Source: Eubacteriales bacterium | GTDB taxonomy: Bacteria > Bacillota > Clostridia > Oscillospirales > CAG-272 | Direction of reading: 5' to 3' | Length of the DNA stretch: 64,000 nucleotides | NCBI GenBank assembly: GCA_045580755.1 | Contig: JAZNOI010000042.1 | Span: forward strand, 2,758 to 66,757 | Notes under the pieces: model-generated | Database searches by the model: none | Told to the model about the DNA's origin: nothing | Seen by the model: only the letters and a program-made list of their open reading frames with translations | Shown: positions 3,162 to 64,000 of the stretch, one piece after another | Position numbering within the stretch: the stretch's first letter is position 1 | Layout of the letters: each line of letters begins with the position of its first letter | Position numbers and translations under genes: made by a program

Positions 3162-3986
3162 ATGAACGCGACGTTAAACATACCCCCGAAAAGCCAAAAA
3201 CAGCACTTTGATACCCAGCTTATACCGACTGACCTTCTTTTCCCTAACCCGTCCCAGCCGAGATTTATTTTCGAGGACGAGCCTCTACTCAGACTTGCTG
3301 ACAGTATCAGACGATACGGTATACTTCAGCCGCTTTCGGTTAAACCGGCAATACGAAACGGCATACAGTCATTTCAAATAATTGCGGGAGAAAGGCGCTG
3401 GAGGGCAGCCCGCATCCTCGGAATACAGAGAGTTCCATGCGTAATTCTCGACGTAGACAGTCAAAAATCGGCTGAAATCGCCCTCGTTGAGAACATTCAG
3501 CGCGAAGACCTTAATTTTTTCGAACAGGCGGCGGCTATTTCTTCACTTATTGACATCTACGGATTAACACAGGAACAGGCGGCACGCAGGCTGTCTATGA
3601 GCCAGTCTTATCTTGCAAACAAGCTTCGCATATTGAAACTCACTCCAAAAGAAAGAAAAGAGATCGTAAAAAACAAATTGACCGAGCGTCACGCGCGTGC
3701 GCTCCTTCGGATCGACGATCCCGAGGTTCGTTTTAATGCTATTTTATACGTTTCATCCAAAGAATTGAACGTCAGCGCAACAGAGAGATACATTGACACT
3801 CTGTTAAATCCCAAGTGCGACGCAACCGCCCCCAAAACAAAAGCTTTTATAAAAGATATTCGTTTTTTTACAAATTCGCTTGACCGTGCACTTGATATTT
3901 TAAAAAACTGCGGAATAAACGCAGTGTCAAAAAAATCCGAAAGCGATACCGAGACTATATTTACCATCACAATACAAAAACAGTAA
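3162..3986 (+). CDS. noc: ParB-family protein in the Noc position (rsmG-noc-soj-spo0J synteny)
   Basis: 274 aa. ParB box IIAGERRWRAARILG and HTH region. AAGGAG RBS before the ATG. The Noc versus second-ParB call rests on synteny only. Confidence 0.7.
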   Translation: MNATLNIPPKSQKQHFDTQLIPTDLLFPNPSQPRFIFEDEPLLRLADSIRRYGILQPLSVKPAIRNGIQSFQIIAGERRWRAARILGIQRVPCVILDVDSQKSAEIALVENIQREDLNFFEQAAAISSLIDIYGLTQEQAARRLSMSQSYLANKLRILKLTPKERKEIVKNKLTERHARALLRIDDPEVRFNAILYVSSKELNVSATERYIDTLLNPKCDATAPKTKAFIKDIRFFTNSLDRALDILKNCGINAVSKKSESDTETIFTITIQKQ

Positions 3987-4032: not shown

Positions 4033-4148
4033 TTTATTTCCCCGTCGTGCAATATGTAAATTATTAATTACAAGATATATATTTATTGACAACGTCCGAC
4101 TGTGCTGATATAATAATATAAGTAAGAATTTCAGCGGAGGATAGATCG

Positions 4149-43832: not shown

Positions 43833-44060
43833 TCAGAGACACCTCCCGATAACGGAACACGTTCGTATTCCTAAAATTTTATCTCCCTCACACGAAGAAA
43901 TACGCGACAAAAAAAGACCTCTCCGCAGAGGTAGAATCATTATAGCACGTCCCCATATTTTTGTCAACACCTTTTTTCATTTTTTGGCTTACGTATTTAC
44001 ATTTACGATCAAATGGTATATAATATAAAGGATATGAAGTAATATTTTTATAAGCGCGCT

Positions 44061-50999: not shown

Positions 51000-52217
51000 A
51001 TGGAATCATTGAGAGAGCTTTACCGAATAGGAAAAGGACCGTCAAGCTCACATACAATGGGCCCCAACAATGCCGCAAAATTATTCAAGAAAAAGAATAT
51101 GGATGCCGACCTCTTCAGCGTTACTCTTATGGGATCTCTTGCAAAAACAGGCAAAGGGCATTTGACCGACGAAGCAATTATTGACGCATTATCACCCACG
51201 CCCTGCGAGATAGTCTGGGACAAAACCTCCCCCACTCCCGTCCATCCGAATACAATGGAATTCAGAGCTTACAAAAACGGAGTGCTCGTTGATTTCAACA
51301 GAATATTCAGTGTCGGCGGCGGAAAGATCAACATTGAAGGTATGGAAGAAGCTGCTCCCCCGTCGGTTTATCCTCACAAAAACTTTGAAGAAATAAAAAA
51401 ATACTGCACCGAAAAAAGAATCCCGCTTTACAAATACGTTGAAGAGTTTGAAGGACGCGAGATCTGGAGCTTTTTAAACGAAGTGTGGAACACCATGCGT
51501 ATGTGCATATCGACAGGTCTTGACGCCGAAGGTGTTCTGGGCGGCGGTCTCGACGTTCAGAGAAAGGCTAAATTACTCTATAACCAAAAACACATGGACG
51601 AAAGCCCGGAAACACGAGAAAACCGCATCGTTTGCGCCTGTGCATTTGCCGCAAGCGAAGAGAACGCGGCAGGCGGAACGATAGTTACCGCCCCCACCTG
51701 CGGTTCATGCGGAATAGTTCCGTCCGTACTATTGTATATGCAGGAAAAGAAAGCTTTTTCGGACTCCGATATTTTAAAGGCTCTCGCTACCGGCGGTATC
51801 ATCGGAAACGTGATTAAAACCAACGCCTCGATAAGCGGCGCTGAATGCGGTTGCCAAGCCGAAGTCGGCTCTGCCTGTTCTATGGCTTCCGCAGCTCTTG
51901 CACAGCTTCACGGAATGGACCTCGACCAAATAAAATATGCGGCAGAGGTTGCCCTTGAGCACCACCTCGGTCTTACATGCGATCCCATTTGCGGTCTCGT
52001 ACAGATCCCCTGCATTGAGAGAAACGCCGTTGCAGCAATGCGCGCGATAAACGCCCTTTCTCTTGCCAACTTTCTTACGCACACGAGAAAAATATCGTTC
52101 GACTACGTCGTTGAAACGATGTATAAAACGGGAAAAGACCTGCACAGCAAATACAGAGAGACTTCCGAAGGCGGTCTTGCCACCCAATACGCAAGGCCCG
52201 AGAGGGATAGTATATGA
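51000..52217 (+). CDS. sdaA: Iron-sulfur-dependent L-serine ammonia-lyase (single chain)
   Basis: IGKGPSSSHTMGP N-terminus. Cys ligand contexts PTCGSCG and CDPICGLVQIPCIERNA. Confidence 0.9.
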   Translation: MESLRELYRIGKGPSSSHTMGPNNAAKLFKKKNMDADLFSVTLMGSLAKTGKGHLTDEAIIDALSPTPCEIVWDKTSPTPVHPNTMEFRAYKNGVLVDFNRIFSVGGGKINIEGMEEAAPPSVYPHKNFEEIKKYCTEKRIPLYKYVEEFEGREIWSFLNEVWNTMRMCISTGLDAEGVLGGGLDVQRKAKLLYNQKHMDESPETRENRIVCACAFAASEENAAGGTIVTAPTCGSCGIVPSVLLYMQEKKAFSDSDILKALATGGIIGNVIKTNASISGAECGCQAEVGSACSMASAALAQLHGMDLDQIKYAAEVALEHHLGLTCDPICGLVQIPCIERNAVAAMRAINALSLANFLTHTRKISFDYVVETMYKTGKDLHSKYRETSEGGLATQYARPERDSI

Positions 52218-52405
52218 ACGAAAAGAAAATACAGGCTTCTTGCGATCTTTGTGTTTACTATATGTACGACGAAGAGGACGAGTGCTACGAATGCGTTAAG
52301 AATCTTGACGAAGACGAAATGCTCCGTTTTCTGACCGGAAACTACAACAACTGCCCCTACTTTCAGTTAAACGACGAGTACGGCAGAGCAAGAAAACAAA
52401 TATAA
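52214..52405 (+). CDS. Small acidic Cys-rich (CxxC...CxxC) protein
   Basis: 63 aa. CDLC-x11-CYEC zinc-ribbon-like spacing. 4-nt overlap with sdaA. Confidence 0.5.
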   Translation: MNEKKIQASCDLCVYYMYDEEDECYECVKNLDEDEMLRFLTGNYNNCPYFQLNDEYGRARKQI

Positions 52406-54743: not shown

Positions 54744-54765
54744 ATTATATCCCTGCATAAAAAAA

Positions 54766-54783
54766 CCGCACGTAAACGTGCGG
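54766..54783. terminator. Bidirectional terminator
   Basis: CCGCACG-TAAA-CGTGCGG flanked by an A-run and a T-run. Confidence 0.75.
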
Positions 54784-54790
54784 TTTTTTT

Positions 54791-54830
54791 GTATCAATAT
54801 ATTTTTGTATCAATATATTTTATCAATATT
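54791..54830. repeat. About 2.6 tandem copies of GTATCAATATATTTT(T)
   Basis: Read directly. Lies between the terminator and the stop of the 54823 ORF. Confidence 0.8.
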
Positions 54831-55029
54831 TACTCATATTTGCTTTATATATCGGACATGTCGAATAATCCGACGTGCAATATTCCTTTTCATGCGTAAC
54901 TTTTTGTGAGCTGTACGAAAAACGTGTAACCGTATTTTCTCCCACAATGCCCTCGCAGGTAACGCTTTTTGCCGATTCCGTAAAGAAAAACGGACACATA
55001 GCTTCAACATTTATCGTTTTGTTCGCCAT
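54823..55029 (-). CDS. Small 4-Cys protein, unknown function
   Basis: 68 aa. AAGGAG RBS 10 nt upstream. Cys at CPFF, TCEG, YCTS and TCPI. Last gene of the repressor-controlled operon. Confidence 0.45.
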   Translation of the reverse strand: MANKTINVEAMCPFFFTESAKSVTCEGIVGENTVTRFSYSSQKVTHEKEYCTSDYSTCPIYKANMSKY

Positions 55030-55071
55030 TATACTATATCTCCTTTTTTTCTGTTTTGTAGTTCACTTCAA

Positions 55072-55248
55072 TTAAAAAGTGCCGAAAGAAAACGTGCTGT
55101 CGTTATCGTCGAGCAGATTGAGTTGAGCTCTTCTGAATTCCCTTTCGCTTTCTTCCATATCATAATCGCTTTTTCTTCTGTAATAATCAATTATATCCTG
55201 CTGATAAGTGTAAAACTCATAGCTGTAACCGTCGTCAACGTGTCTCAT
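55072..55248 (-). CDS. Small acidic protein, unknown function
   Basis: 58 aa from the ATG at 55248, 8 nt after AAGGAG. The track ORF extends to 55278. Confidence 0.4.
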   Translation of the reverse strand: MRHVDDGYSYEFYTYQQDIIDYYRRKSDYDMEESEREFRRAQLNLLDDNDSTFSFGTF

Positions 55249-55326
55249 TGCTGTTACTCCTTTGCTCAACCGTTTCAAATTCCCCCGAAATATTCCGGAG
55301 GAATTCTTTTTACTGTTTAAATTATC

Positions 55327-55722
55327 TTAATTGTCTTTTAGGATGCTTGCAGTTCCCAAAACGGTAACGGCAAATACAAGTATCAAACTCCACGTAGGAA
55401 GAAGTGCTACCGCATTTATGATCTTTCCAAGTACCGCCAGCACACCCCACAGGGCAAGGGCTGCCGCCCCGTATGTGAACAGCTTTTTGAATATCCTTTC
55501 TACGTTTATGTCTGCGCCGCCCTTCTTACCCAAGCTGTCTCCACTTAAAGTAGATAACACGAGTAAAAAAATAGCAGCAACGCATCTCAAAGCACCGACC
55601 AGTATACCCTTTTTATGCACTTTTTGGGTGAGTGGATTCCCCTTTTTCGCACTAACTCTTCTATTTAAGGGTACAATAGGTCTCTTATAGTTTATTATTT
55701 TTTCATCAACGTACTTATTCAT
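55327..55722 (-). CDS. Small membrane protein (basic N-terminus, about 3 TM segments), unknown function
   Basis: 131 aa. First gene downstream of the consensus promoter at 55768-55796. Confidence 0.5.
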   Translation of the reverse strand: MNKYVDEKIINYKRPIVPLNRRVSAKKGNPLTQKVHKKGILVGALRCVAAIFLLVLSTLSGDSLGKKGGADINVERIFKKLFTYGAAALALWGVLAVLGKIINAVALLPTWSLILVFAVTVLGTASILKDN

Positions 55723-55767
55723 ATATTTTTCTTCCTCCGTTGTTTACCATTTTTATCTTACGGGTAC

Positions 55768-55796
55768 ATTATACTCCACTTTTAGTAGAATGTCAA
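55768..55796 (-). promoter_or_regulatory. Consensus sigma-A promoter driving the three small ORFs
   Basis: On the minus strand: TTGACA, exactly 17 nt, TATAAT. Operator-like repeat R1 lies in the spacer. Confidence 0.65.
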
Positions 55797-55851
55797 TACT
55801 TTTGGTAGAATTTTTTTAAAATCCCTTGACTTTTTTCTACTTTTAGTATAC
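55778..55851. promoter_or_regulatory. Three operator-like repeats ACTTTT(A/G)GTA(G/T)A
   Basis: R1 at 55778-55791, R2 at 55798-55811, R3 at 55839-55851, spaced 20 and 41 bp apart. The R3 core TACTTTTAGTA is a TACT-N3-AGTA palindrome overlapping the -10 of the repressor promoter. Confidence 0.45.
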
Positions 55852-55854
55852 AAT
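55826..55854 (+). promoter_or_regulatory. Promoter of the XRE/S24 repressor gene
   Basis: TTGACT, 17 nt, TACAAT. Confidence 0.6.
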
Positions 55855-55879
55855 ATCATCAGAGGGAGTGATCATATTT

Positions 55880-56506
55880 ATGACGATTGGAAAGAGAATC
55901 AAGCGTCTGCGCGAAAAAAAAGGGTATACGCAAGCTGAATTCGGAAAGCTGCTCGGTCTGTCTGACAAAGCGGTTTCCACCTGGGAAAATGACGTAAAGA
56001 TCCCCAGAATGTCCACATTGCAAAGAATAGCCGATATCTTTTGTGTTTCCACAAGTTATCTTGTTGGCGAACGCGAGGAGAAAAACCACAGAGGCGCGGT
56101 TAAGATACCCGTAATGGGTAACGTTGCGGCCGGTACGCCGATAACTGCTATTCAGGAATATATAGACGTAGCTGATTCCGATACGTGGGAGGAGATCCCT
56201 GAAGCACTTGCTTCGACGGGAGAATTCTTCGCACTGCGCATTAACGGCGACAGTATGGAGCCCAAGATGTCGAGGGGTGACATCGTCATCGTCAGACAGC
56301 AGTCGGATATTAATTCGGGCGAAATAGGAATAGTTATGGTAGGTGACGGCGAAGCCACCTGTAAAAAGATCAAAAAACGCCCCGACGGAATAATGCTTAT
56401 TTCCACAAATCCGAAATACGAGCCTATGTATTACAATAACGAGCAGATCGAAGAGCTGCCCGTATGTATAATCGGAAAGGTCATAGAGCTTCGAGCAAAA
56501 TTTTAA
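55880..56506 (+). CDS. XRE-family HTH plus S24 peptidase repressor (phage CI / HdiR-like, self-cleaving type)
   Basis: HTH_3 region IGKRIKRLREKKGYTQAEFGKLLGLSDKAVSTWEN. S24 catalytic Ser in INGDSMEP and Lys in ATCKKIKK. Not a canonical LexA winged-helix N-domain. Confidence 0.88.
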   Translation: MTIGKRIKRLREKKGYTQAEFGKLLGLSDKAVSTWENDVKIPRMSTLQRIADIFCVSTSYLVGEREEKNHRGAVKIPVMGNVAAGTPITAIQEYIDVADSDTWEEIPEALASTGEFFALRINGDSMEPKMSRGDIVIVRQQSDINSGEIGIVMVGDGEATCKKIKKRPDGIMLISTNPKYEPMYYNNEQIEELPVCIIGKVIELRAKF

Positions 56507-56516
56507 CAATAAAAAA

Positions 56517-56534
56517 ACACTCCCGTAGGAGTGT
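56517..56534. terminator. Bidirectional terminator between the repressor gene and clpC
   Basis: ACACTCC-CGTA-GGAGTGT flanked by an A-run and a T-run. Confidence 0.75.
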
Positions 56535-56538
56535 TTTT

Positions 56539-58995
56539 TTATTGCTTTTCGTACACTATCTCTCCGTCGACGGCTTTTGCAACTACGCTATCTCCGGCGC
56601 CGAACTTGCCTTCAAGCATTTCGGTCGAGAAGCTGTCTTCGATTTTTCTTTGAATTGTTCTGCGTAAAGGTCTTGCTCCAAACGAAGGATCAAATCCCTC
56701 TTTCGACACGAGTTTCGTAACGCTTTCATCAAAAGTGATCTTGACTCCGATCGTTTCTATGCGTTTTGCAACCTCGCCGAGCATAATGCCCGAGATCTGT
56801 TCAATATTCTCGCTGGTGAGCTTATTAAAAATGATTATTTCATCGATTCGGTTTATAAACTCGGGACGGAACGTTTCTTTAAGATGAGACATAAGAACCG
56901 TTTTTATGTCCGCCTTTTCTTTTTCCGAGTTTTCCGAAGCGAAACCGAGACTTCTTTTCGTTTCAAGAGCCGATGCACCGACGTTTGAGGTCATAATGAT
57001 CACGGTGTTTTTGAAGTCGACCCGTCTGCCCTGGGAGTCGGTCAAGATTCCGTCCTCGAGAACCTGCAAAAGCATATTAAAGACGTCAGGATGCGCTTTT
57101 TCGATTTCGTCAAACAAAACTACCGAATAGGGTTTTCTTCTTATTTTTTCGGTGAGCTGTCCGCCCTCGTCATATCCCACGTATCCGGGAGGCGAACCGA
57201 TGAGTTTTGATACACTGTGCTTTTCCATATACTCGGACATATCGATCCTGATCATTGCATTCGGATCGCCAAACAGTATATCGGCAAGAGCCTTTGTCAA
57301 TTCAGTCTTTCCGACACCGGTAGGACCGAGGAACAAGAAGCTTCCCATAGGTCTCTTGGGATCCTTAAGTCCCATTCTTCCCCTTCTTATAGCTCTCGAC
57401 ACGGCAATTACGGCATCGTCCTGGCCTATTATTCTGTCTTTAAGGATCGAATCCAGATTCAAAAGCTTTTCGCTTTCTTCTTCTGCAAGTTTTTTTACAG
57501 GAATCCCCGTCCATAAAGTTACGATATCGGCGATCTCCTCTTTCGTTACCGAAAGAGTTTCGCCACCGCTTCTGTCTTTCCACTCTTGCTTTGCTTTTTC
57601 GAACTTTTCTTTAAGCTCTTTTTCTTTATCTCTGATCTGCGCCGCCTTTTCAAAGTCCTGCGCTTTTACCGCTTCTTCTTTTTCGGAGGATGCCTTTTTT
57701 ATTTCCTCTTCAATTTCTTTCACTTCGCTCGGCATGGTAAAATTGTTTATCCTGAGTTTTGACGCCGCCTCGTCGATAAGGTCGATCGCCTTATCGGGAA
57801 GATATCTGTCGTTTATATAACGGGTGGAAAGCTTAACGGCTTCTTCTATAGCTTCGTCCGTTATCTTTACTTTGTGATGCGATTCATACTTGTCGCGAAG
57901 TCCTTTCAGGATAAGAACCGCTTCTTCTTTCGTCGGTTCACCCACCATAACGGACTGAAAACGTCTCTCAAGAGCAGAGTCTTTTTCTATATGCTTTCTG
58001 TACTCTTCTATCGTAGTTGCGCCTATGACCTGCATTTCGCCCCTTGCGAGTGCAGGTTTCAGTATATTAGCCGCATCAACGGCACCCTCGGCTGCCCCCG
58101 CCCCGATTATCGTGTGAATCTCGTCCACAAACAGTATAATGTTCGGATTTTTGGCAACCTCAGCCATAACGTTTTTCAGTCTTTCCTCAAACTCTCCCCT
58201 GTATTTTGCACCGGCGATCATCCCCGAAATATCCAAAGTAACGAGCGTTTTTCCGCTGAGCGTCTCGGGAACATTTCCCTCAACTATTTTTTGTGCAAGT
58301 CCTTCGGCAACCGCGGTCTTACCTACACCGGGTTCACCTATTAAACAGGGGTTGTTTTTCGTTCGTCTCGACAAGATCTGTATGACCCTCTGCGTCTCGG
58401 TATCTCTGCCGATAATGGGGTCAAGCTTACCCTCTTTTGCCATTGCAGTCAGGTCTCTTCCGTACTGTTTAAGGGTAGGCGTATCTTTTAAGCTCGACTG
58501 AGCATTACCTTTTTTCTGGTCTGCCGACTTCAAGTTAGACTGATACCCCCCCTCTCCTTCGACACCTCTGACGTAATTAATAAGATCGTTTGCAAGCTCG
58601 GTAATTCCTACACCTTGCGCCGCCAAGATCCTTACCGCAACGCAGTCGCTCTCGGAGAGAAGCCCCAAAAGGAGATGCTCCGTTCCTATATAATTCTGTC
58701 CAAGCTTCATAGCCTGGTATGCCGACGATTCAATTATTTTCTTTGTGCGTGGGGTCATATCGGCTGCGCCAACGTCGCTGGGCGAGCCCTTCCCCGATAT
58801 TTCTTTAACCATTTCCAAAGCGTTGTCAAGCGATGCCGAACGAGCCAGAAGAAGCTTTGATGCCATTCCGTCTCCCTCGCTCAAAAGACCGAGCAAGAGA
58901 TGTTCGCTTCCGACGTACGTGTGTCCGAATTTTCTCGCATATTCAAGCGCTTTATCAAGCGCATTTTGCGCTGACTGTGTAAATCTGCTGTTCAT
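56539..58995 (-). CDS. clpC: ATP-dependent Clp protease ATP-binding subunit ClpC
   Basis: 818 aa. Clp_N repeats, Walker [10 protein letters not shown] and [12 protein letters not shown]-like linker. Confidence 0.96.
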
Positions 58996-62911: not shown

Positions 62912-63077
62912 ATGATCTCCCCCTTTCTAAAACTGCTATTCTTATGATAATAATATGACACTTATTTAATATTTGTGATTTACTAAACCGCTAATTGAGT
63001 TTTCGAATAATATAAACAGATGATTTATTGATTTTTTCAATTTATTGTTTATACTATAAGTATAGGCGGTGAATAAT

Positions 63078-64000
63078 ATGAATCTTGAAGCCATCGGAAA
63101 AAACATAAAAAGACTGCGCGAAAAAAGCGGGATAACACAAAACGAGCTTGCCAAAAAGCTTTTCGTGAGTTTTCAGGCGGTGAGCGCCTGGGAAAGAGGG
63201 ATATCTCTGCCCGACCTTGAGAACGCAGTCAAAATGGCAACTCTTTTTAACGTGAGTATAGATACGCTCATGCGCGACAGCGAAAGCCATCTCCTCCTCG
63301 CGATCGACGGAGGAGGAACAAAAACCGAATTCGTTTTGTTTGAAAGAAACGGAATAGTGAGAAAACGCGTTATTTGCGAGGGGGCTAATCCCAACGCCGC
63401 AGGCGTTGAAAAAAGCATTGACATTTTGTGCCGCGGTATTGACGAAATAACGGCAAACAATTCAGCCAAAGCAATTTTCGGCGGTATTGCGGGCGTTACG
63501 ACCGGCAACCACGTAAAGACGATAACAAACGCGCTCATCGAAAAATACGGAGTAAAAATAAACATCGATACCGACGGCGTAAACGTTCTCGCTATGGGAA
63601 AGAATCCTGAGAATACGGCTTCGGTAATAAGCGGTACAGGCTCGTGCGTTTTTGTCAGAAACGATTTCAAGCTTACCCGCCTCGGCGGCTGGGGCAATCT
63701 GTTCGCTCCCGCGGGCTCTGCATACAAAGTCGGTTGTGATGCGATAACACATACACTTGCAGTAAACGACCGTCTCGAATCCCCCACTCTGATCACAAAA
63801 CTTGTCGAAGAAAAGCTGGGCGGAAACGTATGGCAAAACCTTTCGTCAGTTTACGAAAAAGGTGTGGCGTATATAGCATCGTTTGCCCCGCTCGTAACAG
63901 AGGCAGCAGAAAAAGGCGAAAAAAAGGCTTTTGATATCCTTGAAGAAAACGCAAAAGGACTTGCCCGCATAATAGAATGTGCAAGAAAGAATTACGGCGC
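63078..64000 (+). CDS. XRE-HTH fused to a BadF/BadG/BcrA/BcrD-type ATPase (N-acetylglucosamine-kinase-like); 3' end outside the window
   Basis: Not in the ORF track because no stop is reached. Hand translation: MNLEAIGKNIKRLREKSGITQNELAKKLFVSFQAVSAWERG... then LLLAIDGGGTKTEF, VISGTGSCVF, LGGWGNLFAPAGSAYKVG. Open to base 64000. Confidence 0.82.
   Translation, partial: MNLEAIGKNIKRLREKSGITQNELAKKLFVSFQAVSAWERGISLPDLENAVKMATLFNVSIDTLMRDSESHLLLAIDGGGTKTEFVLFERNGIVRKRVICEGANPNAAGVEKSIDILCRGIDEITANNSAKAIFGGIAGVTTGNHVKTITNALIEKYGVKINIDTDGVNVLAMGKNPENTASVISGTGSCVFVRNDFKLTRLGGWGNLFAPAGSAYKVGCDAITHTLAVNDRLESPTLITKLVEEKLGGNVWQNLSSVYEKGVAYIASFAPLVTEAAEKGEKKAFDILEENAKGLARIIECARKNYG

Follow-up and report, generated by a model that had tools for sequence, protein, structure and literature searches.

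The 64,000-nt stretch of DNA analyzed here (the window: positions 2,758 to 66,757 of contig JAZNOI010000042.1, assembly GCA_045580755.1, from a Eubacteriales bacterium) carries a cassette of four genes, in which a repressor gene is transcribed divergently from an operon of three small genes. We consider it probable that this cassette is a co-opted and minimized immunity switch of a phage or integrative element that has become fixed in the chromosomes of a genus-level clade of gut Clostridia, represented by Oscillospiraceae-like metagenome-assembled genomes (MAGs). The repressor combines an XRE-type helix-turn-helix (HTH) with an S24 peptidase domain, and the products of the operon are, in this order, a basic membrane protein of 131 aa, an acidic protein of 58 aa, and a protein of 68 aa that has four cysteines (4-Cys protein). 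Positions and strands, counted from the first letter of the window, are collected in Table 1.

An autocleaving-type repressor

The repressor has every sequence hallmark of an autocleaving repressor of the LexA/CI type. Its N-terminal domain is Pfam HTH_3 (E = 3e-13, residues 7–61), with matches to the HTH structures of ICEBs1 ImmR and P22 C2, and its C-terminal domain is Peptidase_S24 (E = 3.8e-29, residues 77–202, covering the full model, 1–116). An earlier annotation of the letters without database searches (the sequence-only reading) had described an XRE/S24 protein at 55880–56506 with the active-site serine in GDSMEP and the lysine in CKKIKK; coordinates, domains, and residues were all confirmed. 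GDSMEP starts at residue 123 and CKKIKK at residue 161, and in alignments to the catalytic domains of 3k2z and 6a2r the resulting Ser125 aligns with the LexA structures and Lys162 with the LexA catalytic lysine. To that description we add a LexA-type VAA/G motif at residues 82–85, with predicted cleavage between Ala84 and Gly85; the linker GNVAA84/G85TP aligns with the LexA (3k2z) linker GEIRAGEK and is invariant in relatives (L001 sequence).

A canonical LexA identity was rejected on the score and on the type of DNA-binding domain. The LexA equivalog TIGR00498 was not reached (87 bits against a cut-off of 110.95, residues 65–203 only), and the winged-helix N-domain LexA_DNA_bind is absent from the repressor, the N-domain being HTH_3. 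The repressor is the only S24 protein encoded in the window, which holds neither a second one nor a canonical lexA. The exact 208-aa sequence has no entry in the gene-position index.

Promoters and operator-like sites

Both divergent promoters, TTGACT-17-TACAAT for the repressor (P_rep) and a perfect TTGACA-17-TATAAT for the small operon (P_small), were found as the sequence-only reading gave them. The perfect form occurs three times in the window vs. zero times in 100 shuffles (the other two copies lie at 4086–4114 on the + strand and 43939–43967 on the − strand), and the sequence of P_small is invariant in the intergenic alignment of 14 lineages. In the 64 kb the exact repeat ACTTTTRGTAKA occurs only at 55778, 55798, and 55839, a cluster that spans no more than 75 bp of the intergenic region, and the reported spacings of 20 and 41 bp are correct. 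One further copy with a single mismatch lies at 63050–63061, in the −10 region of the promoter of another XRE gene, and is probably due to chance, since 1.35 one-mismatch matches are expected.

With their flanks the repeats form imperfect 15-bp palindromes, TCTAC-N5-GTAGA, which we denote O1, O2, and O3. Their placement differs in part from that first proposed: one copy does sit in the spacer of P_small, but the copy said to cover the −10 of the repressor promoter fills the spacer of P_rep and takes in only 2 bp of the −10, and the copy said to lie just upstream of the −35 of P_small is indeed near it, but its 15-bp palindrome overlaps that −35. Operator-like palindromes overlapping both putatively regulated promoters, a mark of membership among S24 repressors, are present and conserved. 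The centers of O1 and O2 are 20 bp apart in every lineage scored, and those of O1 and O3 are 60–62 bp apart in the lineages where O3 is scorable. This layout fits the logic of a classical phage immunity region, in which two sites on the same face would shut the outward promoter and a third would provide negative autoregulation, O3 being the likely autoregulatory site of the repressor. In the 14 lineages a core of ~95 bp, from the −10 of P_small to the −10 of P_rep, is almost invariant, the main recurrent variable base within the operators being the R of the spacer, and the 5′ untranslated region of the operon varies freely.

A fourth operator-like site, O4, was found inside the 131-aa gene by a palindrome search that allowed one mismatch; its half-sites are identical to those of O1 when read on the operon strand. 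The codons at O4 are TCT ACT TTN RGT GGA in 14/14 lineages, with the six-fold degenerate Ser and the four-fold degenerate Thr and Gly unvaried. Of 152 codons in six genes that are at least four-fold degenerate and encode an invariant amino acid, only seven are themselves invariant, three of them in O4. O4 lies 224–245 bp from O1, except in L001, where the distance is 363 bp. This variation makes a strictly phased loop unlikely, and the strict form of the looping model, with O4 as phase-locked partner, was rejected on it. A four-operator architecture with an intragenic site conserved at synonymous positions suggests looping or a roadblock, and O4 may serve as a phase-tolerant loop partner or as a roadblock.

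Conservation of the cassette in related lineages

About 20 related metagenomic lineages carry the four genes, which stand together in all relatives with enough sequence to judge (L001–L018 and L068–L072); contigs encoding homologs of the 68-aa protein hold the four genes in unchanged order. A scan with the repressor, at one genome per species, returned ten species-level MAGs at 91–96% identity, followed by a long tail at 27–53%. The labels of these ten MAGs are Oscillospiraceae, Clostridia, or Eubacteriales, and ruminant gut samples are the source of several. Across them and further metagenomic contigs, identity is 42–53% for the 131-aa protein, 59–81% for the 58-aa protein, and 74–93% for the 4-Cys protein. 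The repressor is 86–96% identical across species vs. 71–93% for the flanking metabolic genes, and is the best-conserved gene of the neighborhood.

Ratios of nonsynonymous to synonymous substitution rates (dN/dS) were computed against the window sequence, with dS >1.3 or saturated. Median dN/dS was 0.013 in the repressor gene; in the operon it was 0.05 (4-Cys protein), 0.065 (acidic protein), and 0.34 (membrane protein), and values of 0.03–0.07 were obtained for the flanking metabolic genes. Such low dN/dS at saturated dS indicates that the three small open reading frames (ORFs) are real genes; the sequence-only reading had asked whether they are conserved in relatives, and all three are retained under purifying selection.

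The surroundings are conserved on one side. The left flank (a cyclase, an N-acetyltransferase, and a 243-aa TIM-barrel-like gene) is constant in all lineages but L001, the most divergent cassette, which occupies a different chromosomal site next to yebC. The flank 3′ of the repressor is variable (window from 56507 onward; L002, L005, L009–L018, L070, and L071): clpC is found there only in the window and in L017, M20 peptidases and large Big_2 surface proteins elsewhere, and an IS30-type transposase beyond the repressor 3′ end in L071. In L012, L014, and L018 the 243-aa and 4-Cys genes are set apart by ~650 bp of additional DNA (~3300–3950), which in L014 contains a 151-aa hydrophobic ORF. The small operon has a GC content of 36–41% vs. 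42–48% in the flanks; this AT excess is only slight, so composition is uninformative on recent transfer.

Phage ancestry and the 4-Cys family

By its sequence relationships the cassette descends from a phage or an integrative element, because the repressor matches CI types, a DnaD-like loader accompanies the cassette in L001, and the 4-Cys family occurs in phages and in elements that bear integrases. The best viral family for the repressor is phrog_4, "transcriptional repressor" (E = 7.5e-46), and 223 phage records match it, the closest being CI-type S24 repressors such as that of Clostridium phage Maintenon (48% identity). In Maintenon the order is integrase, hypothetical gene, repressor, and then divergent Cro and antirepressor genes. 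In L001 a 300-aa phage DnaD-like helicase loader (1969–2871, + strand; phrog_8489, E = 9.8e-53) stands between the acidic and 4-Cys genes and probably survives from the ancestral element.

The 68-aa protein has four invariant cysteines (C12, C25, C51, and C58) and is probably metal-binding. A word-indexed search returned close homologs only (11 clusters, 74–93% identity). A profile search of 1.84 billion representatives returned 652 representative clusters at E ≤ 1e-3, and the 150 best matches are nearly all 63–160 aa long, mostly ~70 aa. Forty-nine aligned members conserve the four cysteines, CPF(F/Y), CEG, and a C-terminal KY (pattern CPF[FY]...CEG...YC...CP...KY); they match no model in Pfam or PHROGs, and the family is named in no source. 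With this 49-sequence alignment AlphaFold2 predicted three strands and two main helices at a predicted local distance difference test score (pLDDT) of 88.8; with the 10 close sequences only, pLDDT was 47 and the model unusable. Foldseek found no match to the 68-aa model in the PDB (best E = 1.3), and the model superposes only on uncharacterized gut-virome phage proteins, on four with template modeling scores of 0.81–0.91 and on a fifth at 0.67.

Family members are encoded in bona fide phage genomes (L062–L066), where they follow replication genes or immediately precede the large terminase. At three other loci (L035, L038, and L039) they lie in operons divergent from XRE-S24 repressors that are 45–48% identical to the one studied here; L039 and L035 also have tyrosine integrases and Cro- or excisionase-like genes, and L038 has a DnaD-like organizer just upstream of its 4-Cys gene. 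The family deserves attention as unannotated, widespread in gut phages, and without match among solved structures; if its function were solved, a role would be assigned to an early or middle gene that is common in gut phages but unannotated.

The three small proteins

The sizes and features first noted for the small ORFs (131 aa with about three transmembrane segments, 58 aa and acidic, 68 aa with four cysteines) are correct. An AAGGAG ribosome-binding site (RBS), claimed for each of them, precedes genes 2 and 3, but the 131-aa gene has GGAGGAAG. By hydropathy the 131-aa protein (pI, the isoelectric point, 10.3) has hydrophobic segments at residues ~39–61, 81–101, and 104–126, preceded by a basic N-terminus (residues 1–38, 11 of them K/R) and followed by a C-terminal tail of ~5 residues. 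In relatives the transmembrane segments and the N-terminus are conserved and the loop is variable. It contains no LysM or other Pfam domain. The 58-aa protein falls with 30 clusters at 66–100% identity, and a profile search with it found no members outside the clade. DUF3879 and DUF3591 (E = 0.05–0.08) were dismissed as noise for this protein.

Scans of the three small proteins against Pfam, PHROGs, NCBIfam, and PADLOC gave no significant match. Profile hidden Markov models of the 131-aa and 58-aa proteins had no matches beside distant repressor homologs, tblastn of the 68-aa and 131-aa proteins against 50,697 phage records returned none, and neither the comparison of alignment A1 and the 58-aa protein with viral contigs nor that of alignment A3 with metagenomes gave confirmed relatives. 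A holin or toxin output, one of the possibilities raised in the sequence-only reading, finds no family match in those four databases. Features of holins are likewise missing: the charged region of the 131-aa protein is N-terminal, the operon contains no endolysin, and it is of the early type, directly under the repressor.

Proposed mechanism and alternatives

In the mechanism that we propose, a dimeric CI-type repressor would bind the 15-bp palindromes. O1 in the spacer of P_small and O2 over its −35, two helical turns apart, would silence the three-gene operon; O3 in the spacer of P_rep would be occupied at higher repressor concentration and provide negative autoregulation, with a possible contribution of O4, within the first gene, through looping or a roadblock. 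The repressor would be inactivated by cutting itself at Ala84-Gly85, a reaction for which RecA* after DNA damage is the most likely stimulus, and its N-terminal fragment would end in VAA, like that of LexA, which is recognized by ClpX and degraded by ClpXP. P_small would then fire, and the three-segment basic membrane protein, the small acidic protein, and the 4-Cys protein of phage origin would be made. Binding of the repressor to the sites, its dependence on RecA, and the output are all things that we infer, and induction by damage is a prediction from the letters. For the output, our first guess is an effector that acts at the membrane under stress, arresting growth or division or excluding phages, with two accessory proteins. 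More tentatively, the cassette might be a stress-response unit assembled from phage parts and selected in its hosts throughout the genus, with a new effector set (the three-segment membrane protein, an acidic partner, and the 4-Cys protein) and four-operator control that includes an intragenic site.

The following points weigh against the reading of the cassette as a co-opted immunity switch, or against parts of it. The three output proteins have no detectable functional relative (Pfam, PHROGs, NCBIfam, PADLOC, and Foldseek for the 4-Cys protein). No Cro-like gene is present, so the cassette is not a bistable phage switch. O4 is not phase-locked, which weakens a strict looping model. As for a RecA* trigger, IrvR, with like hallmarks, cleaves without RecA, and PrlP of Streptococcus suis responds to acid, oxidative, and thermal stress.

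The best-surviving alternative, which we regard as doubtful, is an SOS-type checkpoint in which the 131-aa protein is a DNA-damage-induced division inhibitor like YneA, SosA, ChiZ, or DivS and the phage-derived repressor replaces LexA. SosA and YneA were flagged by the same synteny, a small membrane protein encoded first in the unit divergent from an S24 repressor, and such inhibitors typically evolve fast in sequence, with SosA orthologs sharing only 25–60% identity (PMC6851548); the module is also conserved across the clade. The known inhibitors, however, have a single transmembrane segment and an extracellular C-terminal domain, often with LysM (PMC6851548), whereas the 131-aa protein has three segments, a 38-residue basic N-terminus that would be cytoplasmic, almost no C-terminal tail, and no LysM. 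A checkpoint would also leave the two further co-transcribed genes unexplained, and the phage ancestry of the operon points away from a host checkpoint gene. The division inhibitor of YneA type suggested in the sequence-only reading is not borne out: the analogy with YneA and SosA extends to divergent gene order only.

Prophage remnants are often retained by their hosts for exclusion functions. A defense or abortive-infection unit, with the phage repressor as sensor of immunity or infection and the membrane protein as a toxic or exclusion effector, agrees with this, with a strong predicted promoter held off by a putatively cleavable repressor, with purifying selection in the absence of a visible housekeeping role, and with the repressor-side flank being a rearrangement hot spot, with an IS30-type transposase in L071. 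Among known defense systems in PADLOC-DB, however, the repressor has generic HTH matches only and the small proteins are unmatched; none of 17 related repressors (42–53% identity) has the operator motif upstream, which gives no sign of a circulating phage with such immunity; and the 131-aa and 58-aa proteins had no phage homologs in the searches made. We consider a defense unit unlikely.

It is very improbable that the XRE-S24 protein is the global SOS regulator of the clade, a non-canonical LexA as in Bacteroidetes, and the cassette its autoregulated home site. Non-canonical S24 regulators can replace LexA (PMC8565304; PMC13148647), and the window is free of canonical lexA, but good operator matches within the window are confined to the cassette, the related loci retrieved have exact copies of the repeat nowhere but in the cassette intergenic region, and the protein scores below the LexA equivalog cut-off with a DNA-binding domain of another type. 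An inert, decaying prophage fragment without host function agrees with the phage ancestry of the repressor and 4-Cys genes and with the loss of integrase, Cro, and structural genes, but is scarcely credible and already contradicted by the conservation data, the four genes being intact in every lineage examined, dN/dS being 0.013–0.07 for three of them at saturated dS, the repressor exceeding the flanking genes in identity, and the noncoding core being nearly invariant. "Prophage remnant", another suggestion of the sequence-only reading, thus stands for the ancestry of the cassette (phrog_4, the DnaD-like loader, and 4-Cys proteins in phages) and not for its state, because a unit fixed and selected across a genus-level clade is not decaying.

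Comparison with known systems

The cassette belongs with the known co-opted CI-like S24 repressors that control themselves and adjacent or divergent genes, from which it differs in its payload and in an unusually clear phylogenetic footprint; it is neither a canonical LexA nor an intact prophage module, nor can it be recognized as a checkpoint of the YneA type. IrvR of Streptococcus mutans, a CI-like repressor of the LexA superfamily encoded in the core genome, cleaves constitutively without RecA (PMC7101444). It shares with our repressor the HTH and S24 domains, an Ala-Gly site, the Ser/Lys dyad, a location in the core chromosome without surrounding prophage, repression of an adjacent gene, and a presumed derivation from a degraded phage (PMC7101444). 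IrvR is longer, however, with catalytic Ser224 and Lys260, and its target irvA works in part as a regulatory RNA (PMC7101444), whereas here three small protein genes are associated with three to four operator-like sites.

FddR of Francisella is likewise a phage-derived S24 repressor fixed across a genus, with autoregulation through a palindrome in its own promoter and control of divergently transcribed genes as a self-contained unit (PMC13148647). It belongs to another phylum, has the operator GTG-N11-CAC, and stands in for a degenerate SOS system (PMC13148647); the payload of our cassette is three uncharacterized small proteins. With the CI/Cro regions of phages (lambda-like; Maintenon) the cassette has in common the repressor family, divergent promoters, and several operators, of which two lie close together on the lytic-side promoter and one on the repressor promoter, but it has no Cro, antirepressor, integrase, excisionase, or lytic gene, its first repressed gene encodes a membrane protein, and it is chromosomally fixed in many species.

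LexA with YneA, SosA, ChiZ, or DivS shows the same arrangement of a small membrane protein gene divergent from the gene of an autocleaving S24 repressor (PMC6851548). These LexA-controlled inhibitors have one N-terminal transmembrane segment and an extracellular C-terminal part, with LysM in YneA and ChiZ (PMC6851548), whereas our cassette has an XRE-type instead of a winged-helix repressor, three transmembrane segments, two extra genes, and a phage ancestry. We found no homology between the HdiR systems of Lactococcus and Streptococcus and the payload of this cassette. The streptococcal HdiR cassette is reportedly linked to a umuC-type gene. HdiR itself is comparable as a LexA-like regulator with XRE HTH and S24 domains in a Firmicute chromosome, and is induced by DNA damage through RecA and degraded by Clp (PMC7101444).

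The cassette is a clean natural example of a phage immunity switch that was stripped down and kept by its host: the payload evolves, and the repressor and a ~95-bp regulatory core stay frozen between species with saturated synonymous sites. To the few co-opted S24 repressors described (IrvR, FddR, PrtR, and HdiR) it adds one from Clostridia, and the compact set of promoters and sites O1–O4 could be reused as a damage-inducible switch in poorly tractable gut anaerobes. Current concepts are unchanged by it, and its value is moderate.

Feature positions and neighborhood

Table 1 Features of the cassette and its borders in the window
Feature	Position	Strand	Details
Left bidirectional intrinsic terminator	54757–54792		A7-CCGCACG-loop-CGTGCGG-T7
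16-bp tandem repeat TTTTGTATCAATATA	54786–54829		2.9 copies; Tandem Repeats Finder (TRF) score 63–72
Gene 3, 68-aa 4-Cys protein	54823–55029	−	AAGGAG RBS at 55040–55045
Gene 2, 58-aa acidic Tyr-rich protein	55072–55248	−	pI 4.3; AAGGAG RBS at 55258–55263
Gene 1, 131-aa basic membrane protein	55327–55722	−	RBS GGAGGAAG at 55731–55738
O4, operator-like site	55540–55554		TCTACTTTAAGTGGA on the operon strand; inside the 131-aa gene
P_small, promoter of the three-gene operon	55768–55796	−	TTGACA-17-TATAAT; 12/12 consensus match
O1, operator-like site	55775–55789		TCCACTTTTAGTAGA; fills the 17-bp spacer of P_small
O2, operator-like site	55795–55809		AATACTTTTGGTAGA; overlaps the −35 of P_small and extends upstream
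P_rep, repressor promoter	55826–55854	+	TTGACT-17-TACAAT; 10/12 match; conserved
O3, operator-like site	55836–55850		TCTACTTTTAGTATA; spacer of P_rep and first 2 bp of its −10
Repressor gene	55880–56506	+	208 aa; XRE HTH and S24 peptidase (Pfam, PHROG, structure alignment)
Right bidirectional terminator	56507–56544		−21.6 and −25.9 kcal/mol; z = −8.6 and −10.7

That the small operon ends at a bidirectional terminator was confirmed, and both ends of the four-gene unit carry one. The left terminator (folding energies of −21.6 kcal/mol on the + strand and −19.5 kcal/mol on the − strand; z = −6.9 and −5.2) terminates both the small operon and the 243-aa gene convergent with it, and the right one is common to the repressor gene and the convergent clpC. 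The tandem repeat is positioned between the stop codon of the 4-Cys gene and the left terminator. Rfam gave nothing above threshold, with sub-threshold terminator look-alikes only.

On one side the cassette is bordered by the ctsR-mcsA-mcsB-clpC operon, and on the other by the cyclase, N-acetyltransferase, and TIM-barrel-like genes. The sequence-only reading saw no phage or mobile-element genes nearby, and there are none among the Pfam-scanned ORFs at ~49.7–54.7 kb on the left and 56.5–63.8 kb on the right; nor does the window hold integrase or recombinase, Cro or antirepressor, excisionase, lytic, or replication genes beside the repressor. Farther to the left, a 63-aa Cys-rich DUF6472 protein (52214–52405, + strand; E = 2.2e-24) is encoded after a 405-aa gene (51000–52217); the latter is annotated SDH_alpha/SDH_beta in relatives, where the pairing with the DUF6472 gene is kept. 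At 63079–64000 (+ strand), and continuing past the end of the window, is a second XRE-type HTH (phmmer E = 4.8e-12 to the repressor HTH) with a longer C-terminal region, which resembles, by eye, an ATPase or sugar kinase of the BadF/BadG/BcrA/BcrD type.

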